A stretch of 64,000 bases of DNA from a bacterium (GTDB lineage: Bacteria > JAAXHH01). The stretch covers positions 875,597 to 939,596 of the forward strand of contig CBDAUD010000001.1 of the NCBI GenBank assembly GCA_965200485.1. Direction: 5' to 3'. A program made the position numbers and the translations under genes. Positions 1-38,674 of the stretch are shown here, piece by piece. The notes under the pieces were generated by a model, which saw nothing but the letters and a program-made list of their open reading frames with translations, was not told where the DNA came from and did not search any database. How positions within the stretch are numbered: the stretch's first letter is position 1; the number at the start of each line of letters is the position of its first letter.

Positions 1-1773
1 GTAAAGGGCCACCGTGAATCCCATCCCGGCGCCGATGTATTCCCATTTTATGAGTTGCCCGATCACATCCGACCCACCCGGCAGAGTCGACTTGATCCAA
101 ATCGTTTCCATAGTTGCCTGTAACGGCCACATTTTTTCCACGAATGGATAGGCCGCCGACGGAATGGGCGCCAGTTTCCAGATCAGCGCATAGAAAAGGA
201 AACTGAAGACGATAAGCAGCAGCAGGCTCAATATATACAACTTGACGAGGCTTGGGAATCGCGTTCGCGTGAGTTCCAGTTGCCGGAACGTAGCGACCAC
301 GCCGCTGTGATCGAAAAGAGGAACCGGGGCGAACCAGATCGCCACACCCCTATAGCCCGAAAGGTAGAAGGAGCCCTCTCTGGCGTAGGGGAAGGAAGAT
401 CCGTAAGGCGATCCCGTCAAACCGATCATGCGTGCGCCGATGTAGGAGAAGAAGGGGGTCCACAGGAATCCGAATAGCACGGAGATCCATACCGGAAACG
501 TCGGTTCCAGGTAGTAGACCAGGAGAATGAAGCACAAGGTGGAAATTGCCCAGAGCGCGATAGGAACAGGCAATCTGAAATCGCCCCGGTCCCGCGGCGG
601 CCGGCGGGGACTCCGGTCTCCGGACGCCGCGCCGGTATCCCTCCACAGCAACCGTACGAAGGTCGCGAGGCCGATCAGACCGATGACCAGCGAGGTGCCG
701 ATGGACGAGAAACTCAGCCAGAAGTCGATGGTGTTGTTGATGGATGTGGGAATGGTGCTCATCCCCGGCGACCAACTGTGCAGCAGGCCGAAATGGTACA
801 AGACAGGGTTGGCGATGAAGGTGAGCACGAAAGAACTGATGAAGGTGCCCACCACGATCCAGAACGGAAGGACGAATCCCACCAGGAGCGTGGCCAGGTC
901 CGTGCCAATTCCGATCGGCGTGGCGGGTATCACATCCCGGAAACGCGGCGTGAAGTCCGCAAAGGGTATGGGAAAGACCTCTACGCCCTTGGTCAGCACC
1001 ACGCCGGAAACGGTCGGCACGACAACGTACAGTATACCCCAGCCCAGGCCGATCATGGCGCCGACGGTGAACAGGCGCCACCGCCAGGTCTCCTCTCCCG
1101 CCGAAGACTCCGCAAGCGCGGTCGCACCCGCCGCCTGCACGGGCGCCAGGGGGAAGGGCAGCCGTTCGGTATCAGCCGTAATGCGGAACAGAACGTATCC
1201 CAGGGAAAGAGCGTTGACGAGGCCGAGTACAGAGACAAGGACCGCCAGGAGCACAGGTTGAAGCCATTCCATGGAGAACAATGTGCGCGTGATCAGCGAT
1301 TCGGACCCGCGGGGCGGTGAAACCCACTGGGGCAGAAGCTGTGCCAGGCCGTCCGCCTGGGGCGACTGGATCAGATACTGAAACCAGATCATCTTGGCAA
1401 ACGGTGCGCCGTGGACCGAAGATCCGGCAGCCATCCCGCTGGCGCCCAGTCCCGTCGCCGCCAGCCCGGCGGCCAGCCAGTACAGGATGATGGCCTCCTG
1501 GGGCTTCAGCTTGATGAACAGCCGCTTTCCTATCTCGATGAACATGATGATGGTGACCCACTCCGCGGCGCCGACGAAGCTCTTGCCAGTCACCAGTTCC
1601 AGGTAGATCGCCCCGGGAAGCATGACCAGGCCGACGAAGAAGGCGGCCCAGACGGTTCTTCTGCTGAACCCGTCCTCGTAGGGCAGGTCATCCGGCACGA
1701 TCTGCCATGGTTCCTCCCGCACCGGAGAACCCGTCTCTTCGTTTTCCCGTTCAGGTCTGGTTTGTTCGTTCAT
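1..1773 (-). CDS. Large polytopic membrane protein, uncharacterised family (paralog A; C-terminus runs off the window edge)
   Basis: Minus-strand frame is open from ATG at 1773-1771 (MNEQTRPERENEETG...) down to position 1 with no stop. The translation is strongly hydrophobic and multi-TM. It shares motif order with the 7524-9518 and 16517-18538 proteins (e.g. RITADTERLPFPLAPVQ vs RRQWVEHEKLVFPIMQIP, followed by analogous W/F-rich segments). It is not in the supplied ORF track because it has no in-window stop. It was translated by eye, so local frame errors are possible. Confidence 0.6.
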   Translation of the reverse strand, partial: MNEQTRPERENEETGSPVREEPWQIVPDDLPYEDGFSRRTVWAAFFVGLVMLPGAIYLELVTGKSFVGAAEWVTIIMFIEIGKRLFIKLKPQEAIILYWLAAGLAATGLGASGMAAGSSVHGAPFAKMIWFQYLIQSPQADGLAQLLPQWVSPPRGSESLITRTLFSMEWLQPVLLAVLVSVLGLVNALSLGYVLFRITADTERLPFPLAPVQAAGATALAESSAGEETWRWRLFTVGAMIGLGWGILYVVVPTVSGVVLTKGVEVFPIPFADFTPRFRDVIPATPIGIGTDLATLLVGFVLPFWIVVGTFISSFVLTFIANPVLYHFGLLHSWSPGMSTIPTSINNTIDFWLSFSSIGTSLVIGLIGLATFVRLLWRDTGAASGDRSPRRPPRDRGDFRLPVPIALWAISTLCFILLVYYLEPTFPVWISVLFGFLWTPFFSYIGARMIGLTGSPYGSSFPYAREGSFYLSGYRGVAIWFAPVPLFDHSGVVATFRQLELTRTRFPSLVKLYILSLLLLIVFSFLFYALIWKLAPIPSAAYPFVEKMWPLQATMETIWIKSTLPGGSDVIGQLIKWEYIGAGMGFTVALY

Positions 1774-1776
1774 CCG

Positions 1777-2934
1777 TTACTCGATTCTCAGGTAGTTCCC
1801 CGCTTTTTCCCATTCCGGCCGTGTCAGGCCGTTCAGGTCCCAAACCACCTCTCCCGCCCGGACGGTCAATAGGCCCCTCAGTCGCTGGGTGCCGCGCATG
1901 CGCGCATGTCCCGAATCGACAAATCCGAATTCCCCGTATTCCAGCTCCAATACGGCGATGTCCGCCTCGGCGCCGATGCTCAGCGTACCGAGTTCGGGAC
2001 GCCGAATGACCCGGGCGGGATTGCGTGTGGAACGCATCACCACGTCCTCCAGCGTCATCCCCATGTTGAGGCACTTCGACATGGTCGCGTTCATGCTCGC
2101 GTTCGGAAGCAGGGCGCTGTCCTTGTGGAGGTCCGTGCTGATCGTATCGGGCAGAAAGCCCTGGGCGATGGCCGGTATGGCGATGCGGAACCAGAAACTG
2201 CCGCCGCCATGGCCGAGGTCGAACAGAATGCCCTTGTCCCGAGCTTCGCGGACGTAGGCGTTTACGCTGCCGTTTTCGTCCAGCAGGGGGATGTGCTGTG
2301 CGTAAACGTGCGTATGTATGTCTCCGGGGTTTAGTTTTTTCAACAGCAGATCCCGGTAGCTTCGGGTCGGTTTCGGTGCGAAATCGATCATGGCGATCGT
2401 ACCGCTGCGTCGGGCGGCCTCCACGGCGCCGTCTACCGCCTCCCAGCCGGGTCCACCGAAGTGGGCTGTCTTGGAGCCGACGACGTGTGCGGGGTATTTG
2501 CTGATCATGGCTGCGCAGAGCGCGGGGTCCATCTCTGAAACGTCCTGTTCCACGGCGCCCTCCATGCCGGCGCCCACGATATTGATCAGCGCCAGGACCC
2601 GGGTCTTCGATTCGGCGATGATCGTGTCCTTGAAATGTTCGAACTTCTTCCAGCCGGCGCCCCCCGTATCCAGCACAGTGGTCACCCCGTTAGGCAGCAC
2701 GTGGGCATCGGGGAACAACCAACCCCGGTAGCCGCCGTAGGCGTGCATATGTATGTCAATCAGTCCCGGCGTAACGTAATGACCATGGACGCGGGCCACC
2801 TTCTGGCCGTGTTCCGCCGGGATATCGTGTTTCATCGCCGCGATCACGCCGTCTTTGACGGCGACGTCCCGGTTTCCGTTAATGCCGTTTTCCGGATCGA
2901 TGACGTGGCCGCCCTTGATGATCAGATCGTACAT
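1777..2934 (-). CDS. Amidohydrolase-superfamily metal-dependent hydrolase (D-aminoacylase/dihydroorotase-like)
   Basis: 385-aa ORF. The N-terminal MYDLIIKGGHVIDPENG...GLIDIHMHAY motif is typical of amidohydrolase TIM-barrel metal-binding HxH. It lies 3 nt upstream of paralog A and 19 nt downstream of the 1522-aa gene. Confidence 0.8.
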   Translation of the reverse strand: MYDLIIKGGHVIDPENGINGNRDVAVKDGVIAAMKHDIPAEHGQKVARVHGHYVTPGLIDIHMHAYGGYRGWLFPDAHVLPNGVTTVLDTGGAGWKKFEHFKDTIIAESKTRVLALINIVGAGMEGAVEQDVSEMDPALCAAMISKYPAHVVGSKTAHFGGPGWEAVDGAVEAARRSGTIAMIDFAPKPTRSYRDLLLKKLNPGDIHTHVYAQHIPLLDENGSVNAYVREARDKGILFDLGHGGGSFWFRIAIPAIAQGFLPDTISTDLHKDSALLPNASMNATMSKCLNMGMTLEDVVMRSTRNPARVIRRPELGTLSIGAEADIAVLELEYGEFGFVDSGHARMRGTQRLRGLLTVRAGEVVWDLNGLTRPEWEKAGNYLRIE

Positions 2935-2953
2935 CGCTGCTCCTCTCCTTCGA

Positions 2954-5900
2954 TTAAAGGGGCGTTTGACGATCGAACTGCTCGATATTCCGGTATCGTG
3001 CCTTTATGGGCTCGGAGATCGTCCGCCATACAAGAAACCGCTTCCTCAATACGGTAAAAAATCGGCGGTTGATCGTCTGCCACTGGGCACGGTCTCCGCT
3101 TCGGCGATGGATCACGATGAAGATGCGATAGAGCCGTTCCTCCGGGATCGGCTCCAGTTGCAAACGAACTTCCTGGCTGATGGCCAGATCATACGGCGCC
3201 AGCCAGACGCTGGCCGTCAGGTGATACGTGTCGAAGGCATCCCCTGGCATCACGTCAAGCATGGCGCCCTCGGTGACGAAGTCTTCCGCTGAACTGTCTT
3301 CATGCGTCCGTAGTACATGGGTCAGATAACCGGCCAGCGGCAACGCCTCGGGGACCGTCACCGTGAAGGGAAACTCGAATTGCCAGTCGTCCTCCTCGGG
3401 CGGCGGGGGCGCCCAGCGCCTGGTGACGTCCTCCACCGTCATGTCGGCCGCCTTTTTCGCCGGGTACAGGGTAGACAGGAAGACGACGACCATTACGACC
3501 ACCGTGGCGTAGACGGTCGACAGCGAGGAGTAGTTGAGCGATAGACCGCCCAGTGCTCCCCACTGCAACAGTCCCATGGTGATGATCTGCCCGAAGAGAT
3601 ACCCGAACACGGCCCCAAGCGTCGCGAATACGGCCGCTTCGGCCATGAATAGCGCGGCGACATGATTCGGCGCCAGACCAACGGCGCTGTACACACCGAT
3701 TTCACGGAACCGCTCGAATACGGCACCCATCATCGTATTCAGCACCAGGAAGGCCGCAATGAGCACCGGAATGATCAGATTGGCCAGGCCGGACACCGAG
3801 GTCGCCCCGAGGGAACTGTATACCTTTACTTCGTCGTCCATGCCAACGAAGACGGCCAGGAGGACGCGCGACATGAAGGATTCTACGGTTTCGCGAAGCT
3901 GATCGCCGTCGGCGAATCCCGCGATGGCCACGGACCGCGTAGACCCGTTCAGGTCGAGCGTCTGGCGATAGGGCACCACCAGCACGTTGCGGGACGGAAG
4001 ATGCTCCGATGCCTGGATCGTCGACATGAACACCTCCACGTCCATCTCGGTCAGGCTGCGGGTCATGGAGAAGCTGGCGGGCATGATGCTCTCATCGTCC
4101 ACGTCCCGGTATGCATCGATCCGGTCGGAATCGAGCAGTCCGATCACGGTGTATTCGCCACCGAGGATCTCGACAGCCGTCGTACCTACGTCGTCCGCCG
4201 TCACATTGAGTCGCTCGGCGAGCTCCGTGGGCAACAGGCAGACGGCCCTTTCGCCCCGGTTGAACCATCTGCCGCCCGGCAACAGATAGCGATCCAGGCC
4301 GGTGATGGACGGCTCGTCGGCATGCAGTCCCAGGATAGATTGCACGGTGGTGGCCGTTCCCTTGCCCGGTACCCGCAGGTCGATGTACGGGCTGCTCAGA
4401 TCTTCGGGCTCGTACCACGAACGGGGCACGATCGTAGCGTGTTCCCGGAAGGCGTTCTCCACGTAGGGCAGGAAGGACGTGGGAAGGGCGTGCCACGACA
4501 GGTTGCGCATGAGGACCCCGTTGTACGACGGGGTGTTTTCGCGGTCCAGGGTATAGAATTGAATGCCGGTCTTGAAGGAAGTAAAGGAAAGCACGGTAAA
4601 GGTCAGGAGGGTCAGGGTTACGGCGGTCAGCGCCGTACGCATCTTCCGCTTTCGCAAGTTGGATATGCCCAGGGATATGGCCACCGCCGTGGCGCTCAGC
4701 CGGCCTATGTCGGCTTCGTGCAGGCCGGTCTCGGGACGGGTCAGGTTCTTCATTTCGGTGTCGAACCGAGAAACGATCATGGTGATGATGATCAGTGCCA
4801 GCGCCAGGATGATAAAGGCGAGAAAGACCATGTACGGTGTCAGGCTCAGCTGAAAGGCGGGGTGCACGTTCTGCAGCAGCATGAAAACCGCCGCAAAGAT
4901 CACGCCGACCGCGAGCAGTTGTTTCCGAATGTCCGTGAATCCGAAGAAAAGGCGTTCGAGGAAGAAGCAGAAGGGGATCAGCAGCATGAAATAGAACACG
5001 ATGCCGTCCACCGTGTCGTCCGCGGCATAGCGGACATCGGGATAGGCTCGCGCCTCGTAGCCCCAGGCCTCTCTCGACCGTGCCGCGAAGGCGTCGTAAC
5101 GACGATTCTCCAACGCTTCGCGCGCCGCACGCAATGCCCGCGTGCTCTCCTCGTGCAATTCGGCTGCCCGGGCGTTGGTCACCCCGTGGTCTTCGAGTTG
5201 CATCAACCGGGCCCGGTTGAGCGACCACAAGTCCAGGGCGCTCTGGTAGAACGGATACAGAATCAGTCCCCGGTCCGGCGTGAATCCACGACCCTGTGCC
5301 CGTGCCATGATCTCGTTGGTGACTTGCTCCGGTGGAAGATCGAGCCACGATTCCGGTGTGTTGGTCAGCAGATACTTGACGCCCAGCGGCCCCGCGCTCA
5401 TGAACACTTTGACCGGGTCCTCGGGCTTGGTGAAGACCACCGCGGCGTTGGTCATCCAGTTGCCGAAGAAACTCTGATCTTCGACGAAAGCCGCGCCGTA
5501 CTTGCGCAGCGGACTGTTGTCCCGGCCGAGCACAGTCAGGTTGTCGAGCGCGGTGAAGACGCCGGGGTCCACGATATCGAAGAGGTTGATCTCTTTGCAG
5601 GGAAAGAGGACCTGTATGGTATTGTTCACCTTGGACGAGTTCGGTACCGCGAGCGGGAAGGTTGCGTCGCCCTCTTCACCCAGATCGGGCGCATACACGA
5701 TCCTGCCTTCGGGATCAAGGCCGTAGCTACGTACTTCCGTTGGTCCTTTGGGCTCACGGACCATGGAGAACCGAAATTGCCCCATTGAATCGGCCTGGGT
5801 AACAATGAAGCCCCGCACCCCGCCGTGGCTCTGATAGCCGGGTTCGTAGACGACCAAGGCATCGGCGACCGGTGTGTTGGGCTTGAAGAAGTCGACGGTA

Positions 5901-7522
5901 CGGTCGAATTCCAGGACCCGGCCTTCAATGTCCCGGCCTTCATCCTTGAGCCGGATGGACTCGTCCACCTCGAAGGCCTCGGGGTCCGAAAGCATGGCCG
6001 GAAGCAGTGTGCCGAGGGTCCTGATCTGACGGACCAGGTTGGGGAAATCGACCTCCTCGATCCGGTCCAGAGGCGTGTCTATGCGCAGCCTGTTGTCGTT
6101 CGCCGTGGCGAAGGTCATCCCGTGCAGTCCGGCGAGCGTGACCATCTCGTGGTCGAAAGCAGGCCGCGCGGGCATATAGCTTTCCTGGGACCTGAGCGAA
6201 GGCGTCAGCGTGTTGAGATAGCGTGTGCGCCTCGGTTCATCATGGTACACGCCGGCCTTGCGGGCATAGTTCACGTAACGGTCCGCATAGGGTTCGTACA
6301 GGATCTTCAGGTTCGGGCCGAAGAAGATGAAATCACCATAGCTGAACAGACCGACCTGGTCCATCCTGCTGGTCAGGTCAAGACCCAGGAACAACGTGAA
6401 GGGGATGCGGTCTTCTTCGGGAATCCGATCCAGGAAAAACTCGTCCGCCCGAAAATGCCGGTCCAGGAAGTCGTTTATGCCCTGCAGCCCGTGGAAATGG
6501 GCGGATGTGGCCAGGAACAGCACGGTGTAGCCGGGTGGATGGGCCCTGAGCACCTCCATCAGTTCTAGCAGAGCGGCGATGCCCCCCGCGCTCTCTGCGC
6601 CCGGGGCCTGCCCCGGCACCACTGACATGGCGTCGTAGAACGCCGACAGCACGACGATCCGATCCTTCCACTTCTCCGTGCCGTCACCGCCGGGATGCGG
6701 CTCATCCCGGCCCGGAATCCATCCCATGACGTTCCAGGTATCGGACCGTTCCCAGCTCATGCGCCCCTTGATCGTCACCTGGACCTCTCCGGTCTGCGCC
6801 GCCTGGAGCACTTCTTCCGCATGGGGATCCGGTATCCAGAACCGTGGAACGTCGGCAGGTACATCCAGGATTTTGCGCTGGGCCTGATTATTGGTTATCG
6901 CGCCCGGACCGCTGTCGTAGAACAGCACGGCCCGCGCACCCAGCATGCGCGCGTTGAGGTACTGGTCGCGTCCGTCGAAATCGACCAGAACGATACTACC
7001 CTCGATGTCTTTGCCGTTGAAGTCCTGGAATGCCCCCCGCCGGCCGTAATGCAGCGGCCCCGTAATCCCTTCGGGAAAGGAATTCAACCGCACGAGATTC
7101 GGCCAGAACTGATACACCGGAAACTCGGTTTCCACCGTGTCGTGTACGGTCAGCGTGAAGCCATGGTCTATCGGAGAGGAAACGGTGAAGGTGTCTATGG
7201 CAACCCGGGAAAGGCCTCCGGCCCGGAATGCGTCGACCACGTACTCCATGGCCGCCCGGTTTCCCGGATAACCGACTACGCGCGACGGATTTTCGCTCAT
7301 TGCCCGAACGTGAGACTCGACGCGTTCCCGGGTAACGATTTCGGAAACCTCTTCCAGGGACACCGGCGCCTCTTCGAGCGGCCTGGGCACCACGTCTCCG
7401 GGCAGCGAGACGACTTTCAGGATCACGTGCTCTGTCACCCAGGCCGGTCCTGCCAAGGCCACGGCGAGAAACAGCAGGACGCCGATGGCTAGAAAGAAGT
7501 ATCCCGATATGCGCGAATACAC
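2954..7522 (-). CDS. Fusion protein: N-terminal TM anchor + PA domain + M28-family Zn aminopeptidase, central TM region, C-terminal MacB/FtsX-type permease domain
   Basis: 1522-aa ORF. The PA-like segment is GSIVLVDFDGRDQYLNARMLGARAVLFYDS. The M28-like segment is ...IVVLSAFYDAMSVVPGQAPGAESAGGIAALLELMEVLRAH. The FtsX signature is VSGLANLIIPVLIAAFLVLNTMMGAVFERFREIGVYSAVGLAPNHVAALFMAEA, which is MacB-like (TERTREIG...). A large extracytoplasmic loop sits between TM1 (MRTALTAVTLTLLTF) and the FtsX helices. The start codon sits 1 nt after the stop of the upstream paralog-B gene. Confidence 0.85.
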   Translation of the reverse strand: MYSRISGYFFLAIGVLLFLAVALAGPAWVTEHVILKVVSLPGDVVPRPLEEAPVSLEEVSEIVTRERVESHVRAMSENPSRVVGYPGNRAAMEYVVDAFRAGGLSRVAIDTFTVSSPIDHGFTLTVHDTVETEFPVYQFWPNLVRLNSFPEGITGPLHYGRRGAFQDFNGKDIEGSIVLVDFDGRDQYLNARMLGARAVLFYDSGPGAITNNQAQRKILDVPADVPRFWIPDPHAEEVLQAAQTGEVQVTIKGRMSWERSDTWNVMGWIPGRDEPHPGGDGTEKWKDRIVVLSAFYDAMSVVPGQAPGAESAGGIAALLELMEVLRAHPPGYTVLFLATSAHFHGLQGINDFLDRHFRADEFFLDRIPEEDRIPFTLFLGLDLTSRMDQVGLFSYGDFIFFGPNLKILYEPYADRYVNYARKAGVYHDEPRRTRYLNTLTPSLRSQESYMPARPAFDHEMVTLAGLHGMTFATANDNRLRIDTPLDRIEEVDFPNLVRQIRTLGTLLPAMLSDPEAFEVDESIRLKDEGRDIEGRVLEFDRTVDFFKPNTPVADALVVYEPGYQSHGGVRGFIVTQADSMGQFRFSMVREPKGPTEVRSYGLDPEGRIVYAPDLGEEGDATFPLAVPNSSKVNNTIQVLFPCKEINLFDIVDPGVFTALDNLTVLGRDNSPLRKYGAAFVEDQSFFGNWMTNAAVVFTKPEDPVKVFMSAGPLGVKYLLTNTPESWLDLPPEQVTNEIMARAQGRGFTPDRGLILYPFYQSALDLWSLNRARLMQLEDHGVTNARAAELHEESTRALRAAREALENRRYDAFAARSREAWGYEARAYPDVRYAADDTVDGIVFYFMLLIPFCFFLERLFFGFTDIRKQLLAVGVIFAAVFMLLQNVHPAFQLSLTPYMVFLAFIILALALIIITMIVSRFDTEMKNLTRPETGLHEADIGRLSATAVAISLGISNLRKRKMRTALTAVTLTLLTFTVLSFTSFKTGIQFYTLDRENTPSYNGVLMRNLSWHALPTSFLPYVENAFREHATIVPRSWYEPEDLSSPYIDLRVPGKGTATTVQSILGLHADEPSITGLDRYLLPGGRWFNRGERAVCLLPTELAERLNVTADDVGTTAVEILGGEYTVIGLLDSDRIDAYRDVDDESIMPASFSMTRSLTEMDVEVFMSTIQASEHLPSRNVLVVPYRQTLDLNGSTRSVAIAGFADGDQLRETVESFMSRVLLAVFVGMDDEVKVYSSLGATSVSGLANLIIPVLIAAFLVLNTMMGAVFERFREIGVYSAVGLAPNHVAALFMAEAAVFATLGAVFGYLFGQIITMGLLQWGALGGLSLNYSSLSTVYATVVVMVVVFLSTLYPAKKAADMTVEDVTRRWAPPPPEEDDWQFEFPFTVTVPEALPLAGYLTHVLRTHEDSSAEDFVTEGAMLDVMPGDAFDTYHLTASVWLAPYDLAISQEVRLQLEPIPEERLYRIFIVIHRRSGDRAQWQTINRRFFTVLRKRFLVWRTISEPIKARYRNIEQFDRQTPL

Positions 7523-7523
7523 G

Positions 7524-9518
7524 CTAGTCTATCCCGTAGATATGATGTCCTGCATGCGGAAACCAGATGTAGTCGACAAGCATGGAGATGACCACGCCGG
7601 TAGCGACGCCGAAAATCAAGCCCAGGAAGAAGGGTTGGCCTTTTCGGTAAAGCTCGATCCCGCCCACCCACATCATGATGCGTTTGATGACCCAGCACAC
7701 GAACATGGACGAGACAATCGCCCGGGCGGGCCAGGAGTATGAAAGGAAAAAACCGAGGGGATGCAGCGGCCAGCCCGGCAACCGGGCCCTGAGCATCATG
7801 AGCAGGAACATGAGCGACCCGCCTACAACAAAGAACATCAGCCGTGCCGTGTCCGGTCCGAAGGGATCCCGGATCTTGGCGAGCGTTTCGTTGTAGGGGA
7901 TGGTCGAACCGATCCGGCCGAACCACCATCCGTTGGTAAACTGACGCGTGCCCTGGTCAAACCCCATGTAGATCGTCCAGACCAGCGAAATCACCACGCC
8001 GACCACCGCGGCGGAAAGGAGTGACCAGCCCAGACCCCGGTGCCAGCGCGTACCGATCTCAGACAGTTTGGCCACCTGCATGAAAGCGGGCATGAAGGTG
8101 GACTTGATCTCGCTGATCGGTCCGTAGGTCTGCGCCATGGCCGTCATGGTGGACATGGAAAGGTTGGCCGAACCGACCGAATAGAAAACGAGAACCTGGG
8201 CGATCATGGGCGAACGCACATAGGGCAGCCCGGCCTCGGCGATGATGCGGGAGACGCCGATATAGATGATGAAGACGCCTGCGAGGAGGAATACGGCAAT
8301 GGGTATGTCCATGCCCAGCTGATTCAGCCAGACCACCCCGTAGACGAACCCCCCGAGAAATCCGAATACCGCGACCCGGTAGGGGAGCATCTCTTCCGCA
8401 TCGTCCAGGTCTGATCTGCGGCCGAACGCCTGGGAGACCACGGCCCGGATATGAAACCTCGCCCGCCAGAGTCCCCACCCCACGAATACGATGAAGGCGC
8501 CCATGTTCTGCCAGTCCAGCATGGGATGGCTCGAGGTGTAATTGTCTCTTCCTGGAATGTCGTACCCGATCCGGTTGGCGATGCCCACCTGGATGATCCC
8601 GAGCATGTAGAACACCCAGAATCCGGCCAGCACGTCCAGATTGACGAAATAGGAAATGCCGAGAATGGCCGGGCGGAAGTTGATTTCCAGCGGGGGAAAT
8701 CCGTCGCCGAAGACGATGGGCGGCGCCGAACCGAAATAGGGAAACTGGGGCACGACCGGCGTGAAGTATCCGATCATGTTGTACATCATCACGCAGAACG
8801 GGATGGAAAAGCCGATCCAGAACCGCTTCTCCGTAAGAAAGGCGGGGACGCGACCCGGACTTTCCATGCCCCGGGTAAAGGCGAGGGGAATCTGCATTAT
8901 GGGGAAGACGAGTTTCTCGTGTTCGACCCACTGGCGCCTGAGGATGACCACAAGACACAGTGCCATGAAGATGAGCGGGATGATGAGGGTGAGCCACCAG
9001 AACAGCGGAATGCCCCACACAGTCCAGGGAATGGAGGCGCCGGGGGGGAGACCGTCTACAAACCACGTGAGGGCATTGCCCTGGTTCGTGACGGTCGCCC
9101 AGGGTTGCAGGTACGGGTAGAAATACTCGGCCCACTGGTTCTCGGGTGTGGCCAACAGGTAGGGGGCCATCAGGGTGGAGATGAACGGCGCGCCCATGCC
9201 GTTGGTCGTAAGGCCCGAAGCCGCCATGCCCATGGCCAGGGGAATGACAAACTCATGGGGCGTAAGCGCCCAGTCGGCTTTCCATTTTGCGAGCCCGACG
9301 TTGAAAATGATCAGATAGGCGAAGGCCAGAAAGAGCGCGCCGATGTGGAGATGATCCGCGCCCAGCTGAGACGAGGCCATGGTGTACTGGAAATAAGGCA
9401 CGATCAGCGAGATCAGGACGACGCTTGCCATCCCGAGGAGAATGGATCGCGGCGTAATGATCCGGGTCGCCGACGCCGGGACGGCGGAGGTGTTCACATT
9501 TTGCTGTACTGAGGCCAT
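7524..9518 (-). CDS. Large polytopic membrane protein, uncharacterised family (paralog B)
   Basis: 664-aa ORF, about 14+ predicted TM helices. It is a clear paralog of 16517-18538, with shared motifs FVDGLPPGASIPWTVWGIPLFWW / FYEGLPSGGTIPWRDWIIPMGWW, RRQWVEHEKLVFP / RKQWIERERLTFP, ARLPGWPLHPLGF / HWWPLHPIGW, and C-terminal VDYIWFPHAGHHIYGID / VDVIWFPNSGHIVETW. I cannot assign a named family from memory. Confidence 0.8.
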   Translation of the reverse strand: MASVQQNVNTSAVPASATRIITPRSILLGMASVVLISLIVPYFQYTMASSQLGADHLHIGALFLAFAYLIIFNVGLAKWKADWALTPHEFVIPLAMGMAASGLTTNGMGAPFISTLMAPYLLATPENQWAEYFYPYLQPWATVTNQGNALTWFVDGLPPGASIPWTVWGIPLFWWLTLIIPLIFMALCLVVILRRQWVEHEKLVFPIMQIPLAFTRGMESPGRVPAFLTEKRFWIGFSIPFCVMMYNMIGYFTPVVPQFPYFGSAPPIVFGDGFPPLEINFRPAILGISYFVNLDVLAGFWVFYMLGIIQVGIANRIGYDIPGRDNYTSSHPMLDWQNMGAFIVFVGWGLWRARFHIRAVVSQAFGRRSDLDDAEEMLPYRVAVFGFLGGFVYGVVWLNQLGMDIPIAVFLLAGVFIIYIGVSRIIAEAGLPYVRSPMIAQVLVFYSVGSANLSMSTMTAMAQTYGPISEIKSTFMPAFMQVAKLSEIGTRWHRGLGWSLLSAAVVGVVISLVWTIYMGFDQGTRQFTNGWWFGRIGSTIPYNETLAKIRDPFGPDTARLMFFVVGGSLMFLLMMLRARLPGWPLHPLGFFLSYSWPARAIVSSMFVCWVIKRIMMWVGGIELYRKGQPFFLGLIFGVATGVVISMLVDYIWFPHAGHHIYGID

Positions 9519-9656
9519 GGAAGAGGCTGGGAACAGATCTCGCGATGTTCGGGCACTGGTTTAGACGAGCGAATGGGTTCAGAATATGTAAGGCGGTACA
9601 TGGGATAAGTCAAAGAAAAACAGCGTCGTCACAAATCCTCCGACAGCGTAGTTCCA

Positions 9657-12278: not shown

Positions 12279-12332
12279 CAGCGCCTTCACGACAGTATCG
12301 TCCAGGTAACGGCGTCGAACAAGGCCGGTTAC

Positions 12333-13967
12333 ATGAATCCTCACGCAATGGATTACCGCCAGGTGCTACCGGAGCACCTGCTGCATACCTATCTTGAAGA
12401 TTTCGAGTCGTTGCGGCCGTTCTACGGCCACGGCCCGCGCGACCCGGAGGTCTGGCCGCGCATGATCGAGGCCGTAAGGTCCCGGTCCACACAACCGCCG
12501 CGAAAGGCGCTTGCCCGGATACTCGAGGAACAGAACACTCGGTACGGCGCGGACGAGACCGTCCTCGACAACGCCCGGTCCTTCGCCGGAGAAGATACGT
12601 ACGCGGTTTGCACCGGACAGCAGACCGGACTGTTCACCGGACCGATCTATACCATCTACAAGGCCGTCACGGCTGTGAAGCTGGCAAGGCGGATATCGAG
12701 TGAGACCGGCGCGCGGGTCGTGCCTGTATTCTGGATGGCCGCCGACGACCACGACTACGCCGAGATCAACCACATCCACGTCTGCCGGGCGGACGGAGAC
12801 CCGATACGGTTCGAACTGAGCCCCGCCGACCCCAATGATCGCCGTTCCGCAAGCGCCCGCAAGCTCGGTTCCGGGATCGGACCTCTGCTCGAGCGGCTCG
12901 GCGAGGTTCTGCCCGACTCGGAACACTGTCCGTCCGCAGTCGACGCGCTTCAGCGGAACTGTACGGCGGAGAGCACGCTTTCCGAGGCCTTCGCCCGGCT
13001 CATGACGTTGCTCTTCCGGGGACAGGGCCTGGTGCTTATCGACCCCACCGACTTGGCGCTGAAGCCCCATATGCGTCCTGTCTTCGAACAGGAAATCCGG
13101 CATCCGCTCGCATCCACGCGCTCGGTCCTGACGACTTCGGACAAACTGGCCGATGCGGGATTCGATCCGCAGGTGTCCCGGTCCGCAGACGCGGTGAATC
13201 TGTTTCTTTACCAGGAAGGGCAGCGCAACGCCCTGCGATACGAGAACGGGCGGTTCAGCAACCGGGACCGCAGTCTGTCCTTTACTGCCCAAAGTCTGCT
13301 ACGGCTGCTGGAAGAAAAGCCGGAGAGATTTACCCACAACGTCGTTACCCGGCCACTGGTTCAGGACACGCTGTTTCCTGCGCTGACCTATATCGGCGGT
13401 CCCGCTGAAATCGCCTACTACGGACAGCTTGGCGATGTCTACCGTCAATTCGGTCTGCCCTTCCCCGTGGTTTATCCGCGGGCTTCCCATACGCTGGTGG
13501 GCGCAAGAACCGCCCAGATCATGGAGAAACACGGCCTCACGATCACCCATAGCGTCCAGGGTATCGAATCCGCGTTGGCCCTGAAACTGCGGGAAGAGAT
13601 GCCGGCGCCCATCGTCGAGGGACTACGCGCCGCCCGGGGAGATGTGGAAGCCCACTATAGAAACCTGAAAGGACAGGTTACATCCATCGATCCCGGGTTG
13701 AGCCGGATCGTCGAGGCCTCGGAGAGAAAGACCAACTTCGCCCTGGGCAGGCTGGAGGAAAAGACCCTGCGCGCCTTGAAGAAGGCGGATGGAACCATAC
13801 GCAACCAGATCATGCGGGCCGACCGTCTGGTGTATCCCAACGGGCAGCTCCAGGAACGGGTGGCCAACATCTGGCAGTACGTGGCCCTCCACGGTATCGA
13901 CATCATGAAGACGCTCTTCATGGCTACTGACGAAAACGACTTCAGGCACCGGATCACGCGCTTATGA
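12333..13967 (+). CDS. bshC: Bacillithiol biosynthesis cysteine-adding enzyme BshC
   Basis: 544 aa. Conserved BshC signatures are CTGQQTGLFTGPIYTIYKAVTAVKLA, VFWMAADDHDYAEINHIHV and RFTHNVVTRPLVQDTLFPALTYIGGPAEIAYYGQL. They match B. subtilis BshC (GGQQAGLLTGPLYTIHK..., RFSNNVVTRPLMQEF...IAGPGEINYWGEL). Confidence 0.92.
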   Translation: MNPHAMDYRQVLPEHLLHTYLEDFESLRPFYGHGPRDPEVWPRMIEAVRSRSTQPPRKALARILEEQNTRYGADETVLDNARSFAGEDTYAVCTGQQTGLFTGPIYTIYKAVTAVKLARRISSETGARVVPVFWMAADDHDYAEINHIHVCRADGDPIRFELSPADPNDRRSASARKLGSGIGPLLERLGEVLPDSEHCPSAVDALQRNCTAESTLSEAFARLMTLLFRGQGLVLIDPTDLALKPHMRPVFEQEIRHPLASTRSVLTTSDKLADAGFDPQVSRSADAVNLFLYQEGQRNALRYENGRFSNRDRSLSFTAQSLLRLLEEKPERFTHNVVTRPLVQDTLFPALTYIGGPAEIAYYGQLGDVYRQFGLPFPVVYPRASHTLVGARTAQIMEKHGLTITHSVQGIESALALKLREEMPAPIVEGLRAARGDVEAHYRNLKGQVTSIDPGLSRIVEASERKTNFALGRLEEKTLRALKKADGTIRNQIMRADRLVYPNGQLQERVANIWQYVALHGIDIMKTLFMATDENDFRHRITRL

Positions 13968-14692
13968 AACTGGACATTCTGGCCGTATCCCCCCATCCGG
14001 ACGATGTGGAATTGCACTGCGGCGGTCTGATGATCCGTTTCGCCGACCTGGGGTACGCCACGGGAATCGTCGATATGAGCCTGGGCGAGAAAGGCACCCG
14101 AGGCACGGTCGCCGAACGGAAACGGGAAGCGGCGGCAGCGGCGGAGGTCTTGGGTTTGTCCGAGCGATTGAATCTCGAATTGCCGGACGCCCGAATCGGC
14201 GCCTGCGGGACGCATCGCACCGCCCTCATCGACGCCATACGCCGGTTCCGGCCCGAGATGCTGCTCGTCCCCCACGATGCTGCTCGGCATCCCGACCACA
14301 GCGCGACCGCTCAGTTGGCCAGAGAAGCGGCCTTCGTCGCGGGCCTGGAGAAAGTCGCATCGGATCACCCGGCCTTCCGGCCCCGGCAACAGATTTTCTA
14401 CCTGACCCACCACGCCTTCCGAGACCCGCGTCCGTCTTTCATCGTGGACATCACCTCGACGTTCCACCGCAAGATCGAGGCGGTCAAGGCCCACCGGTCC
14501 CAGTTCCACGATCCCGATTCCACCGAGCCGGACACCTTCATCAGCCGTCCCGAATTCCTGGAAGAGGTGGAGGCGCAGAGCCGCTACTACGGCGGCCTGA
14601 TCGGCGCACGGTACGGAGAGCCCTTCGTTGTCCGCGAGTACCTTTCGATTGATGATCCCCTGGCGCACTTCGCAAAAAGCGGGATGGCATGA
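13964..14692 (+). CDS. bshB: N-acetyl-alpha-D-glucosaminyl L-malate deacetylase BshB (PIG-L/LmbE family)
   Basis: 242 aa. The N-terminal LAVSPHPDDVELHCGG is the PIG-L family metal-binding motif (AHxDDxE). The conserved HPDH is further on. ATGA start/stop overlap with bshC. Confidence 0.88.
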   Translation: MKLDILAVSPHPDDVELHCGGLMIRFADLGYATGIVDMSLGEKGTRGTVAERKREAAAAAEVLGLSERLNLELPDARIGACGTHRTALIDAIRRFRPEMLLVPHDAARHPDHSATAQLAREAAFVAGLEKVASDHPAFRPRQQIFYLTHHAFRDPRPSFIVDITSTFHRKIEAVKAHRSQFHDPDSTEPDTFISRPEFLEEVEAQSRYYGGLIGARYGEPFVVREYLSIDDPLAHFAKSGMA

Positions 14693-14779
14693 CCGCATGA
14701 ACCGGACAGAATCGCTCCTCGCCCGGTCCGGAATACCTGTTTTGAAGAGACGGACAACCCGCAACCCGAGGTCATCGAG

Positions 14780-15901
14780 ATGAACATCGGCATTACGTGT
14801 TATCCAACGTACGGAGGAAGCGGCGCCATCGCCGCCGAACTGGGACAGGCGCTGGCCCGGAAGGGGCACATGGTCCATTTCGTAAGCTATTCGATTCCCT
14901 TCCGCCTGCAGGAATACAACCAGAACATCTCCTTCCACAACGTGGAGGTGATGCCCTATCCATTGTTCAAGTACCCGCCGTATACTCTCGCGCTCGCGGC
15001 GAAAATGGCGGACGTGGCCTCGGAGGCGGAACTCGACATCCTGCACGTGCACTACGCCGTTCCCCATGCCACCTGCGCTTTCCTGGCGCGACACATGCTG
15101 CGCGACCGGGATATCAAGGTCATCACGACCCTGCACGGCACCGACATTACCCTCGTGGGCAGCGACAAGTCCTTCTACCGGATCACCCGGTTCAGTATTG
15201 AGGAAAGTCAGGGCGTCACGGCAGTCTCCGAATCCCTTAAACGCGATACGAAATCGCTCTTCGATGTCGACCGGGAAATTCGGGTGATTCCCAATTTTGT
15301 CGACGTCAATCGGTTTCGTCGGCGTGAGGGCCACTGCGACATCAGCAACTTCGTCGATGAGGACGAACGGGTCATCGTCCACGTCTCCAATTTCCGGCCG
15401 GTCAAGCGTATTGGCGACATCATCCGCATGTACGCGGAGGTGCGTCGCAGCGTCAAATGCAAGCTGCTGCTGGTGGGGGAAGGACCGGAGCGCATCCCCA
15501 TGCAGGAACTGGTCCGGGAACTGGGCCTTCAGGATGGCGTGGTGTTTATGGGAGAGCAGGAGGGAGTGGACCGGATACTTTCCTGTGCCGATCTGTATCT
15601 GCTTCCGAGCGAACAGGAAAGTTTTGGCCTGTCCGCCCTGGAGGCGATGAGCTGCGGTGTTCCGGTGATCGGCGCCAACGCCGGAGGCCTGCCGGAACTG
15701 GTGCGTCACGAGGAGACGGGCTTCATCACGGAAGTGGGCGATATCCGGCAGATGGCCCGGTACGCCACGGAACTGCTGTCCGACGACGCGCTCCGCGGAA
15801 TCATAGGAAGAAAGGCGCGGCAGCGGGTGGAGGGCAATTTCGCGGAAGAAGCCGTTGTCCCGCAGTACGAATCCTATTACGAAGAAGTCCTGCGTAGATA
15901 G
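14780..15901 (+). CDS. bshA: N-acetyl-alpha-D-glucosaminyl L-malate synthase BshA (GT4 glycosyltransferase)
   Basis: 373 aa. [30 protein letters not shown]...[10 protein letters not shown]...TTLHGTDIT...[14 protein letters not shown] is nearly collinear with B. subtilis BshA ([22 protein letters not shown]...). Confidence 0.92.
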
Positions 15902-15986
15902 CGGCATACCGCACAACCGGTGGCCCCGGTCGCGACCGCTCCGGATGCCCGGTTACGCGTCAGGCCGCCGAGTATTGCCGTTGCGG

Positions 15987-16433
15987 TCAATCCTCTTCCG
16001 CCTTCGCTGCGAGCGATGCGTAGCTGACACCTTCTCCGCTATCGCAACACACCGGCAGACCGACCTCTTCCCAACCCGGATTGACGACTTGGCCGAAGGC
16101 GGTCGTCTCGCCGCTGAATCCGCAGCGCATGTTGACTGCCGTGCGGTATCCCATCGACTGCAGCAGCCGGGCGGCATGGTCGGACCGTTGTCCGCTCCGG
16201 CACCCCAAAATCAACTTCGCATCCTCCGGATAGTTCGCCTTTACCACCCGGGCGAAATCGGGATTGGGCGTCATCTGCCCGGTCGCCTCGTTCGCGTGCA
16301 ACAGCGGGATGTTCACGGCTGGCGCCGGGTGGCCCTGATCGAATTCGGGGACCGACCGGACGTCGATGTAGGTGTAACCCTCGGATTCGACCAGTCTGGC
16401 CGCCTCTTCGGGCATGATCTGCTTCACGCTCAT
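15987..16433 (-). CDS. Rhodanese-domain sulfurtransferase (single domain, active-site Cys)
   Basis: 148 aa. YIDVRSVPEF...ILGCRSGQRS is the rhodanese CRxGxR active-site loop. It lies 83 nt downstream of the paralog-C membrane gene on the same strand. Confidence 0.85.
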   Translation of the reverse strand: MSVKQIMPEEAARLVESEGYTYIDVRSVPEFDQGHPAPAVNIPLLHANEATGQMTPNPDFARVVKANYPEDAKLILGCRSGQRSDHAARLLQSMGYRTAVNMRCGFSGETTAFGQVVNPGWEEVGLPVCCDSGEGVSYASLAAKAEED

Positions 16434-16516
16434 GGAGAGATTCCTTTCTTATCGTTTTGCTTTATACGCACGGCCTCGTGTTGACTGGGCGCCTCGTGTC
16501 AACTCAATCCGGCAGG

Positions 16517-18538
16517 TTACCACGTCTCTACGATATGGCCCGAGTTGGGAAACCAGATTACATCGACGCCGTAGGAAAGCGCCACGCCCAGCACATAACC
16601 CACCAGCATCCCGATGAAGAACGGTTGTGCCTGGCGATAGAGTCTCGTGCCGCCAAGTTTCAGGATCACCGCCTTGATCAGCCAGACGATGAAGAGCGAC
16701 GTGGCGATCATCCCGATACCCCAGGTTTTCGCGACTGCCCAGCCGATGGGATGCAGCGGCCACCAGTGGAAGTTGTGGTGCGCCAGGATGAGCAGCCAGG
16801 CGACGAACGCCCCGATCCCGAGGCCGGCGTACTCGCCGCCGGTCAACTGGGTCTGATTGTTGATCCACGTCGTCAGCGTTTCGTATCCCGCTTTCGCGTT
16901 GCCGAAGGCGTCGGCGAATCCGTCCGCACCGGTGGTCGTGTAACCCAGGAAGATGGTGTACACCACCGAAATGGCACCGGCGACGAGAAGCGCCGATACG
17001 ATGACGGGAAAGATGCCGCGTCGGGCGCCGCCGACCTCGTCGCCCACCTTGTTTACGTGGGCAATGGCGCACATGCCCAGCGTGCGCCAGTTCCGCGAAA
17101 AGGTCTGCGAAAGGGTCAACATGGTGAGGTCCGCCCGGTGCAGGTTTGCCGAACCAAAGGAAAAAACGGTGAAATCATGGGCATTGTAGGGCAGGTCCAG
17201 ATTGATCAGCCCCGCTTCCGCCACCACGCGGGTAACGCCCAGAAAGAGCAGCAGGCTGGTGGCCAGGAGTGTTGCCGCGGCGGCGACGGACATGCCCATG
17301 CCGATCAGAAAGAAAAACATGTATGCGATGCCTATCACAACCCCCCCCATGGCGGTCCTGTACGAGAAGAACTCCCCGGAATCGTCAATGTCCCGCCCCC
17401 GGCCGACAGCCTTTCTTACGACGTCGCAGAGGTGGCGGCGCGCCATCCACAGTCCGAAGAGGGTGTACATGAAAAAGCCGCCCAGGTGCTGGGCCGTTAC
17501 GATTTCGGTCGTCTTTGGAATGCCGAATCGGCTCATGATACCGATCTGGATCGTGGCCAGCAGGAAGAACACCCAGATACTGAACAGGATGTTCAGCTCG
17601 GTAAAGAACCCGACACCGATAAAAGCGAAATTGATCTTGAACTGAATCGGCGGAAAGGATTCGGCCAGGGTGATCGGTATGCGGTAGTCCCCGCCCAGTT
17701 TGATGGGGGGCACGACGTCCCAGTACGAGACGATGTTCCAGACGATGATAAAGAGCGGGATGGAAAATCCGTACCAGAATACCGCGGACCGGGCGACCCG
17801 GGGCAACGCGGAACCGCTTTCGTCTTCTTCGATGAGCAGCAGCGGCACGCGCGCCAGCGGAAAGGTCAGTCGCTCCCGTTCGATCCACTGCTTGCGCAGG
17901 ATCACCATGAGCGATGCGCTGGCGAAGAACAGGGCTACAAAGAACGATCCCCACCAGCCCATGGGAATGATCCAGTCTCGCCAGGGTATGGTGCCGCCCG
18001 ACGGCAGCCCCTCGTAGAACCAGTGTACCGCGTTCCGTTCGTCCGGGACGATCAGCCAGGCAGGCAGGTATTCGAAGAACAGTTCCACGTACCGGTTCTC
18101 GGAGTTGGCGTAGTAGTGGGGAATGGAGGGTATGGCAACCCAGTAGGTGGTAAAGGCCCATCCTGGAATGGCCGATGCCGTGAACACGATGAAGAAGATG
18201 ATGATCAGTTCCTGCGGGGTGAAGGCCCGCGCGGGCGCGAATCGCTTCAGCAGACCGTTCACGACGAAAACGACCAGCATGAAGGGGAAGAGCGCCGCCA
18301 TGGGCAGATGAGTAATGGAAAGGTAGGAGGAATGGGCTTCGAAGGCGGAATGAACGACCCACCAGGCCATCGACGCAGACAGGACGAGTCCGAGACCCAC
18401 CGCCCGAAGGGTCATGCCCGAAGCGAGGCCCCGGGCTCCGGCGGAAGCGCGTGTTTCGGTAGAATGGGAATCCGGCTCCCCGGATGGCGGGGAAGACCGC
18501 GGTCGGACACGCATGGATTTAGCGTTTGAGGGGGACAA
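16517..18538 (-). CDS. Large polytopic membrane protein, uncharacterised family (paralog C)
   Basis: 673-aa ORF. It is multi-TM and shares the conserved motifs of 7524-9518 (see that entry). The first about 40 residues are Ser/Pro/Arg-rich, so the real start may be the internal Met at about 18415 (MTLRAVGLGLVL...). Confidence 0.8.
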   Translation of the reverse strand: MSPSNAKSMRVRPRSSPPSGEPDSHSTETRASAGARGLASGMTLRAVGLGLVLSASMAWWVVHSAFEAHSSYLSITHLPMAALFPFMLVVFVVNGLLKRFAPARAFTPQELIIIFFIVFTASAIPGWAFTTYWVAIPSIPHYYANSENRYVELFFEYLPAWLIVPDERNAVHWFYEGLPSGGTIPWRDWIIPMGWWGSFFVALFFASASLMVILRKQWIERERLTFPLARVPLLLIEEDESGSALPRVARSAVFWYGFSIPLFIIVWNIVSYWDVVPPIKLGGDYRIPITLAESFPPIQFKINFAFIGVGFFTELNILFSIWVFFLLATIQIGIMSRFGIPKTTEIVTAQHLGGFFMYTLFGLWMARRHLCDVVRKAVGRGRDIDDSGEFFSYRTAMGGVVIGIAYMFFFLIGMGMSVAAAATLLATSLLLFLGVTRVVAEAGLINLDLPYNAHDFTVFSFGSANLHRADLTMLTLSQTFSRNWRTLGMCAIAHVNKVGDEVGGARRGIFPVIVSALLVAGAISVVYTIFLGYTTTGADGFADAFGNAKAGYETLTTWINNQTQLTGGEYAGLGIGAFVAWLLILAHHNFHWWPLHPIGWAVAKTWGIGMIATSLFIVWLIKAVILKLGGTRLYRQAQPFFIGMLVGYVLGVALSYGVDVIWFPNSGHIVETW

Positions 18539-18726
18539 AAGACACTGGCCTCACGGGCCGTTCCCGGACGTTCCGGGATGCGCACAATGTATTTTCCGGA
18601 CGGGGTCCCATCAAGGACTAAAACGATGGCCGGCTGGCGGCTGTTTCCCTTGACATCGGCCGCTTCCGCCCATAGAATGGTCGATATTTCCTGCCCTTGC
18701 TCTCCCCCGTTCAGAGGACCTTCTTC

Positions 18727-19701: not shown

Positions 19702-19779
19702 GGTCTGCCTCCGCGTGCGGAGCCCCGGGGCGGCGCTGGCGGTGAATCGAAAGCCTTTAAGCGAATACATGACGCTAAT

Positions 19780-35545: not shown

Positions 35546-35579
35546 CGGGACAAAGGCGGAACAGCGACGGGACCGTACC

Positions 35580-38615: not shown

Positions 38616-38674
38616 GGCTGAACGCAGGATGACGACAGGCACGGCGGTCGCCGCCGTGCGGGAGGAATGGCTGC

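Follow-up and report, generated by a model that had tools for sequence, protein, structure and literature searches.

What are the three large membrane proteins encoded within the first 18.5 kb of this stretch, and are they three versions of one thing? The stretch analysed (the window) comprises 64 kb of bacterial DNA, positions 875,597 to 939,596 of contig CBDAUD010000001.1 (assembly GCA_965200485.1); around the three genes, here named A, B and C, it is densely coding, with a G+C content of 60%. A first-pass annotation had described A, B and C as three paralogs of one unassigned polytopic membrane family, locally expanded for substrate diversification, one of them paired with a rhodanese. The reading preferred here, with a probability of about 60% for the whole, is that all three are carriers of the OPT superfamily: B and A as the first and last members of a four-gene operon, B-X-AH-A, which represents a recurrent module with the giant membrane protein X, and C as a stand-alone carrier.

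All three genes lie on the minus strand. Gene A (1..1773) comprises 591 of 680 codons and runs off the window edge without a stop; gene B (7524..9518) encodes 664 aa; gene C (16517..18514) encodes about 665 aa, its open reading frame (ORF) being open up to 18538 and its start likely the ATG at 18514, on the basis of N-terminal conservation with the ortholog in locus L007. No further copy of these families was found within the 64-kb window. A public contig (L001) is identical to window positions 1-19518 (0 mismatches in 19,518 nt) and carries A as an intact gene of 680 aa; because of this copy, and because A is 85-92% identical to its own orthologs, the earlier concern that A might be frame-shifted or a pseudogene falls away.

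B and C align over 642 aa with 33% identity (E 5e-110) and carry, in N-to-C order and above the Pfam gathering cut-offs (25 bits for DUF6785, 26.4 bits for DUF6784), the same two models: DUF6785 (B, 365.8 bits, E 4e-109; C, 380.6 bits, E 1e-113) and DUF6784 (B, 80.9 bits, E 9e-23; C, 81.0 bits, E 8e-23). The same pair, in the same order, was present in all 31 sampled relatives of the B family. For B and C the description as a large polytopic membrane family is thus borne out; the word 'unassigned' holds for function, the Pfam models being already in place. Four motifs, GLPxGxxIPWxxWxxPxxWW, RRQWVExE[KR]LxFP, WPLHPxG and VDxIWFPxxGH, are shared by B and C as signatures of their own. A had been credited with the same collinear set; the central motif alone is common to A and B/C (FRITADTERLPFP vs RRQWVEHEKLVFP), the GLPxG...WW motif is shrunk in A to W..P, and the two C-terminal motifs cannot be seen in the window copy of A, whose last 89 residues lie beyond the window.

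The relation of A to the other two is of another order. A has no match in Pfam or NCBIfam, DUF6785 and DUF6784 included, nor does the full-length 680-aa protein match NCBIfam, where B and C likewise have no match; BLASTP of A against B and C returns one 53-aa patch (E 3e-4), an ERLPFP patch (E 0.27) and nothing more; and neither family's profile hidden Markov model (HMM) picks up the other family. A is indeed the more diverged copy, as had been noticed, and by far more than was then implied. By profile comparison with hhalign the A and B families align along their whole length, in 557 collinear columns, with a probability of 95-96% and an E-value between 2e-8 and 5e-9. The reversed B profile gave a probability of 0.2% (E 0.29), and eight B alignments shuffled in 25-column blocks gave short local matches (E about 1e-3, probability 9-20%); because both kinds of control fail, the similarity of A to B/C is more than compositional. 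The signature common to the two families amounts to no more than a few motifs, L-x-P-x-E, (S/T)-P-(Q/E) and E-(R/K)-L-x-F-P. The A family counts more than 1300 homologs of about 660-680 aa, named 'peptide transporter' at NCBI and lacking a Pfam model, in metagenome-assembled genomes (MAGs) of Gemmatimonadota, Latescibacterota and Zixibacteria; the B family, searched with HMMER among 1.84 billion representatives, comprises 7578 clusters at 50% identity (E<=1e-3), 2804 of them at E<=1e-30. Judged by these sequence comparisons, B and C are two true, ancient paralogs and A is a remote homolog from a sister family, so that of the three proposed paralogs of one family two are kept, the third being a relative at the level of profiles.

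Both families were placed by predicted structure. The AlphaFold2 (AF2) model of B (predicted local distance difference test, pLDDT, 87.4; predicted template-modelling score, pTM, 0.88) was matched by Foldseek in the PDB to barley Yellow Stripe 1, HvYS1 (7wsr/7wst, E 3e-9, TM-score 0.65-0.71), the next match being at E 0.04 and TM-score 0.09. The model of the A-family protein P0003, 91% identical to A (pLDDT 72, pTM 0.78), was matched to the same structures (7wst/7wsr, E 4e-9 to 1e-8, TM-score 0.56-0.65); for both models all chains other than HvYS1 lay at E >0.01 and TM-score about 0.1. The models of B and of the A family contain the YS-core plus scaffold fold of HvYS1, at 12-14% identity. HvYS1 is a homodimer with a core and a scaffold domain, for which its authors proposed an elevator-like mechanism and reported no structural homologs of either domain; its first 47 residues are unresolved (PMC9691689). 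OPT members have about 16 transmembrane segments and about 650-750 aa (PMC3061005); the A, B and C proteins have 664-680 aa, and in the model of B some 16 helices reach 13 residues or more; a strict hydropathy scan finds no more than 9-11 strongly hydrophobic segments. The A- and B-family profiles found no match among PDB sequences even at E<=10. When 31 proteins of each family were scored against the Pfam OPT model, a single A-family protein, P0120, cleared the gathering score (28.7 bits, cut-off 25.8; profile positions 132-619 of 623), and no B-family protein did.

The predicted folds place both families in the OPT/Yellow-stripe superfamily, as two deeply diverged branches; the A family is the branch nearer to OPT, and A, B and C fall outside Pfam OPT as now defined. 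In the model of B the division into DUF6785 and DUF6784 appears to cut one continuous transporter fold. Because the fold matches HvYS1 alone, A, B and C are most likely inner-membrane, ion-coupled, elevator-type secondary importers. A hallmark of the OPT family is the proton-coupled import of peptides or of metal chelates. Prokaryotic OPTs are essentially uncharacterised, and analysis of gene context has assigned peptide uptake to most and oligosaccharide uptake to some (PMC3061005).

Between B and A lie two further genes of the same strand, and together the four form an operon in the order B-X-AH-A with intergenic gaps of 1, 19 and 3 nt: the stop codon of B, the first gene, is 1 nt before the GTG start of X, and the stop of AH is 3 nt before the start of A, the last gene. 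Protein X (2954..7522) is a giant membrane protein of 1522 aa with Pfam matches to PA, Peptidase_M28 (weak) and FtsX; AH (1777..2934) is an amidohydrolase/deacetylase-family metallohydrolase of 385 aa, predicted to be cytoplasmic (Pfam Amidohydro_1/3), which barely reaches NCBIfam NF006689 (371.3 bits, cut-off 371). The order X-AH-A is kept in the window's clade (L005-L009, L084-L091, L096); AH is absent from most distant modules.

The association of X with the two transporter families was surveyed from both sides. Stretches with the B-family motif number at least 597 in GTDB species genomes, mostly of Latescibacterota and Gemmatimonadota, some labelled Planctomycetota, and among the matches listed there are often several per genome. 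In 83 loci (79 GTDB species-genome loci chosen by this motif, plus 4 fetched earlier) X adjoins B in 19, in the orders B-X-AH-A, B-A-X, X-B-A and B-X-B. Conversely, in metagenome loci for which X was the sole criterion of choice (34-74% identity), A or B was present in 73 of 80; where at least 2.2 kb was available on both flanks (n=47), A or B was present in 45, both in 32 and neither in 2. A-family genes sampled independently adjoin X and/or B in four cases out of four. In the relatives the X-to-B junction is a 4-nt ATGA overlap in 9 of 16 and the B-to-A junction is at most 13 nt in 11 of 11, as measured by a start-picking method that favours small gaps. A module of X with A, B or both is conserved among MAGs of the Gemmatimonadota/Latescibacterota type.

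In one Latescibacterota lineage X and a B-family protein are a single polypeptide. In protein P0322 (2120 aa; L168:5001-11363) residues 25-1459 correspond to the whole of X (hhalign 100%, 36% identity), and residues 1483-2110, in the same frame, to a complete DUF6785/DUF6784 transporter. Its cluster at 90% identity has 56 members, among them P0393, P0397, P0399 and P0400; four distinct fusion sequences of 2120 aa come from separate contigs in ENA/JGI/Logan, and an NCBI Latescibacterota MAG holds a version of 2083 aa. The P0322 locus is flanked by FG-GAP/UnbV_ASPIC genes, with no A-family gene nearby. By analogy with MacB the C-terminus of X should be cytoplasmic; the N-termini of HvYS1-type proteins are presumed to be cytoplasmic, and with this assumption the geometry of the fusion fits the expected topology.

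X itself is built, from the N-terminus, of a transmembrane segment, a periplasmic PA plus M28-like domain, three transmembrane segments, a MacB/FtsX module (a transmembrane segment, a periplasmic core domain and three transmembrane segments) and a cytoplasmic tail of about 160 aa with no recognisable motif; eight transmembrane segments are predicted in all, those of the FtsX module at 965-983, 1243-1261, 1288-1306 and 1334-1352. The module matches Pfam FtsX at E 1.5e-13, and MacB_PCD is detected in relatives of X. Sequence matches in the PDB are the aminopeptidase 2ek8 (E 1e-15), YtrF, MacB, LolC and LolF; the X-family profile also matches nicalin and the transferrin receptor, both non-catalytic relatives of M28.

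The M28-like domain was checked for its active site by alignment of X with the PA-M28 aminopeptidase 2ek8 and among eight family members (40-65% identity). The Glu-Glu pair (catalytic residue and ligand) is replaced by an invariant His-Phe, H342-F343; at the first zinc-ligand His the HHD/HxD motif has become F/Y-Y-D, with Phe or Tyr in six of the eight and His in two; GAxDD (GANDD in 2ek8) has become GAE(S/N); and the presumed position of the second His ligand, placed by the canonical S-D-H motif, is not conserved across the eight. The conserved D382 presumably corresponds to the Asp ligand of the canonical N-x-D-M motif. The co-catalytic zinc site and the catalytic Glu of family M28 are therefore missing from X, which is probably not a conventional di-zinc exopeptidase, as far as its residues tell, and the annotation 'M28 peptidase' is probably misleading. 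The first-pass suggestion that the family might neighbour peptidases elsewhere is answered in this half-way form: X is such a neighbour and is conserved, but the canonical catalytic residues are gone from its M28-like domain. A search of ORFs for Walker-A plus LSGG-type motifs, covering the 64-kb window and the flanking sequence (about 10 kb) retrieved for the genome loci that carry X, revealed no MacB/LolD-type ABC ATPase; the sole ABC ATPase seen, a sugar-type protein with duplicated nucleotide-binding domain, lies far from X in L022.

In the proposed mechanism B and A would be co-expressed from the four-gene operon, and the products of A, B and X would, with somewhat better than even prospects, form one inner-membrane complex. 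The ectodomains of X would capture, present or trim (modify) an extracytoplasmic substrate, which A and B would carry across the membrane; as to stoichiometry, a heterodimer of A and B is doubtful, plausible because HvYS1 is a homodimer. In the window's clade the cytoplasmic amidohydrolase/deacetylase would process the substrate, tentatively a peptide or an N-acylated peptide-like or amino-sugar compound. C alone would probably import a different substrate. A bolder form of the same proposal, in which X, A and B are a new transport machine coupling an OPT-fold elevator to an ATPase-less mechanotransmission protein of the MacB/FtsX type, is improbable; in it, either the ion-gradient-driven carrier would replace the ATPase and power the periplasmic domains of X, or the carrier would receive substrate from the non-catalytic PA/M28-like receptor domain of X, and in the latter case X would be a membrane-tethered extracytoplasmic receptor serving a secondary transporter of the OPT superfamily.

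Several observations weigh against the reading of A, B and C as OPT-superfamily carriers with a B-X-AH-A module. A, B and C have no Pfam OPT (PF03169) match even at E<=1. The ATPase of X could be encoded elsewhere in the genome, and we know of no working precedent for a MacB-type module without an ATPase. The composition of the module varies (X with A only, B-X-B, and the X-B fusion without A), and because modules with X and A only and B-X-B modules exist, an obligatory A/B heterodimer is not general. The neighbours of the module and of solitary B genes are mostly enzymes of carbohydrate and sugar-acid metabolism, sulfatases and TonB-type receptors, not peptidases, which weakens the guess of a peptide as substrate. 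The literature searched contains no mention of DUF6785 or DUF6784 and no experimental study of the A and B families or of X.

No neighbour of the module was consistent across lineages as a clue to the substrate. GAF, metallo-beta-lactamase-fold, DHDPS-family, CBM9-like and discoidin/T9SS-tail (type IX secretion system, T9SS) proteins were considered and dropped as inconsistent, as were an ABC sugar system, ExbBD and FGE-sulfatase. As an observation of its own, the module in L165 and L167 (8001-12900), L114, L119, L124, L125 and L152 follows genes for a TPR protein, ExbB, ExbD, ExbD, a protein of no assigned kind and a PpiD-like rotamase; lineages of this ExbBD type (L165, L167, L114 and others) carry an FGE-sulfatase-family gene between A and X or B, and, upstream, secreted discoidin-domain proteins with a T9SS-type C-terminal domain.

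The history of B and C was read from 173 B-family proteins clustered by identity. The cluster of B has 15 members, all adjacent to X; that of C has 22, none adjacent to X or A; and the nearest non-identical neighbour shares its context in 156 of the 173, where chance agreement, calculated from how often each label occurs, would be about 57%. To its nearest non-orthologous relatives, which are stand-alone copies, C has 40-45% identity, and to B only 33%. A recent tandem duplication of B and C is ruled out by this identity and by their separate clusters, and from sequence B and C are taken to be old subfamilies and not a local duplication. Local expansion of paralogs, as first proposed, is accordingly not upheld: B and C are each closer to genes of other lineages than to one another, and A belongs to a second family, inherited together with B as its operon partner. 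Substrate diversification fares better at the scale of the family, with its 7578 representatives in varied contexts; A is not a duplicate for an alternative substrate.

Stand-alone B-family genes neighbour Gfo/Idh/MocA oxidoreductases (10 loci), enolase-superfamily enzymes, PhyH dioxygenases, sulfatases and FG-GAP/rhamnogalacturonan-lyase-like proteins, and in six loci (L037, L039, L041, L048, L049, L062) a TonB-receptor-like gene with two outer-membrane-type genes of no assigned function. These contexts fit inner-membrane uptake within polymer-utilisation loci, with a wide range of substrates and not specifically peptides. The six-locus cluster, of Latescibacterota (e.g. L037:4079-6412), was observed to consist of a receptor-like protein with CarboxypepD_reg and Plug, a 778-aa protein with no Pfam match, a protein of about 330 aa with a faint FadL/TodX-like signal and then the stand-alone B-family gene; its make-up suggests an outer-membrane uptake component paired with an inner-membrane one. 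In some B-family proteins (P0290, P0321, P0324; 824-874 aa) an insert of about 200 residues separates the DUF6785 region from that of DUF6784.

How else might the locus be understood? That A, B and C are three independent paralogs, expanded locally for different substrates, and that X, AH and the rhodanese adjoin them through shared metabolism and not as parts of a complex, is unlikely. The large B family, its multiple copies per genome and very varied neighbourhoods, the many stand-alone copies and tandem B-B pairs and the variable composition of the module all speak for it, as does the assignment of prokaryotic OPT genes to catabolic neighbourhoods (PMC3061005). It has to accommodate, however, an A that belongs to a different family, detectable by profile or fold comparison only; a B and a C with 33% identity and closer relatives in other lineages; the rarity of X without A or B (45 of 47 have one or the other); junctions that overlap or measure at most 13 nt; and a natural X-B fusion, which goes beyond metabolic linkage. 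Less probable again is an envelope or export machine of X, A and B, in which X would exert mechanotransmission on a periplasmic or outer-leaflet substrate (a lipoprotein, a glycan, a peptide or a cell-wall hydrolase partner) and the OPT-fold proteins may be the membrane partner of X, possibly the energy source replacing an ABC ATPase. Such a machine would account for the FtsX/MacB-type module with its periplasmic core domain, for the lack of a cognate ATPase in the window and in the fetched flanks of the X-bearing genome loci, for the physical fusion of X to B, for the resemblance of the degenerate M28-like domain to receptor and scaffold domains (nicalin, transferrin receptor), and for the position of some modules downstream of ExbB/ExbD genes and secreted proteins with T9SS-type C-terminal domains. 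Yet the characterised members of the OPT family are importers, no conserved lipoprotein-sorting, cell-division or efflux (membrane fusion protein (MFP)/TolC-like) genes were seen beside the module, and the ATPase may sit elsewhere in the genome.

The rhodanese raises a third possibility, that C and its neighbour are a sulfur/thiol pair, C importing a thiol peptide or sulfur compound (the cargo may be glutathione-like, a bacillithiol-related conjugate or thiosulfate) on which a cytoplasmic sulfurtransferase acts, with the nearby bsh genes as thematic company; of the explanations weighed it is the least probable. The rhodanese (15987..16433, minus strand; 148 aa, single domain, Pfam Rhodanese 1.7e-14) lies 83 nt downstream of C on the same strand, as the first-pass annotation had seen, with no terminator-like site in the gap. 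Its active-site loop is intact (C78-RSGQR-S, a six-residue loop with the catalytic Cys), its GlpE/PspE-like NCBIfam matches are below both equivalog cut-offs, and no N-terminal hydrophobic segment is visible in the translation. A complete bacillithiol biosynthesis set, bshC-bshB(PIG-L)-bshA(GT4) (12333-15901, plus strand), converges on it downstream of C, and some OPT-family members are described as carrying glutathione. In L002-L004 a divergent rhodanese (Pfam) is found two genes upstream of a B-family gene. Against the pair stands its distribution. Besides L001, which is the window's own contig, a rhodanese next to a B-family gene was seen in just two loci, L005 and L007, both with 82-89% identity to C, and in L005 an extra ORF intervenes between the C ortholog and the rhodanese; the close relatives L006 and L009 keep the bsh genes and lack both C and rhodanese. 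Among the surveyed loci, an iterated HMM built from the window rhodanese found orthologs only in L001, L005 and L007, and a scan for the active-site-loop motif added nothing convincing, both having missed the L002-L004 rhodanese; no rhodanese was seen by about 70 other B-family loci with these narrow and insensitive detectors. The neighbourhood is thus not systematic, recurring in L005 and L007 only and once, two genes away, in L002-L004, insofar as insensitive detectors can tell. The juxtaposition of C and rhodanese is recent and lineage-specific, and a functional link is unproven.

The preferred reading, OPT-superfamily carriers with a B-X-AH-A module and a stand-alone C, gives DUF6785/DUF6784, with its roughly 7,600 clusters, a fold and a likely role in elevator-type secondary uptake, and the superfamily placement extends to the related 'peptide transporter' family, for which Pfam has no model, and makes the role testable. 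In uncultured bacteria abundant in the sea and in sediments, genes of the A and B families lie in loci that seem to serve the use of organic matter. We know of no earlier description of a secondary transporter that is consistently paired, and in one case fused, with an ATPase-less MacB/FtsX-type protein carrying a degenerate peptidase domain; if the proteins form a complex, they would represent a new accessory-protein architecture for secondary transport and one of few instances of an FtsX-type module that operates apart from an ABC system. The placement in the superfamily is a sound if modest step forward, and the X-A-B module with its fusion is the testable part.

Around these genes the window contains the following. 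An MMPL/RND-type gene (9657-12278, plus strand) lies between the two transporter loci. The flank of C opposite the rhodanese holds a divergent NAD-dependent epimerase/dehydratase (18697-19701, plus strand; public gene call and NCBIfam) and a PhyH dioxygenase. An ORF of 452 aa upstream of C (18412-19770, minus strand) seemed coupled to an internal Met of C by an ATGA overlap; because it has no Pfam match and the true plus-strand epimerase/dehydratase occupies 18697-19701, it was rejected as a shadow ORF of a high-GC genome and not a gene.

Further along the window, a pyridine-nucleotide-disulphide oxidoreductase (27580-28950, minus strand) adjoins an aldehyde:ferredoxin oxidoreductase (29042-30889, minus strand; AFOR_N/AFOR_C, E 1e-145), an unexpected pair beside an aerobic respiratory cluster (34877-47110, plus strand). 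In this cluster a 4Fe-4S dicluster protein of 1011 aa and an NrfD-like membrane subunit together resemble an alternative complex III; cytochrome oxidase subunit I and other subunits come after them. The window's single tRNA call by ARAGORN, tRNA-Ile(GAT) (36659-36740, minus strand), lies inside the 1011-aa ORF on the opposite strand; an Rfam scan of the window gave no match, and because Rfam finds nothing at that position the call is probably a false positive. Between 47100 and 51650 the G+C content falls from about 0.60 to 0.54-0.55 and the coding signal is poor; an ORF of 717 aa (47759-49912, plus strand) combines a Pro/Thr-rich linker, three tandem repeats of about 90 aa and an extended series of leucine-rich repeats of the plant type (ELGQLTNLTxLxLxxNELTGxIP), and the segment may be an island gained by horizontal transfer. 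Far from the operon, at 61003-62967 (minus strand), lies a serine peptidase of the prolyl-oligopeptidase family (S9) with PD40 beta-propeller repeats, the sole Pfam-recognised peptidase among 10 ORFs annotated beyond 20 kb.

Set beside known systems, A, B and C resemble the OPT/YSL family (PF03169, TC 2.A.67; HvYS1) in their length of about 650-680 aa, their many-helix polytopic character and their predicted fold; they differ in falling below the Pfam OPT model and, for B and C, in carrying signature motifs of their own, and we know of no canonical OPT that is paired with or fused to an FtsX-type protein. B and C are full-length members of DUF6785+DUF6784, whereas A is not a member. The C-terminal four-segment module of X, with its periplasmic core domain, is like that of the type VII permeases MacB, LolCE, FtsX and YtrF; unlike these, X has no fused or neighbouring ATPase, adds four transmembrane segments, a PA/M28-like ectodomain of about 800 aa and a novel cytoplasmic tail of about 160 aa, and adjoins, or in one lineage is fused to, an OPT-fold protein. 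With the PA-M28 aminopeptidases (2ek8), the transferrin receptor and nicalin X shares the order of PA and M28 domains, whereas the Glu-Glu pair of the aminopeptidases is absent from X and their His ligands are mostly lost.

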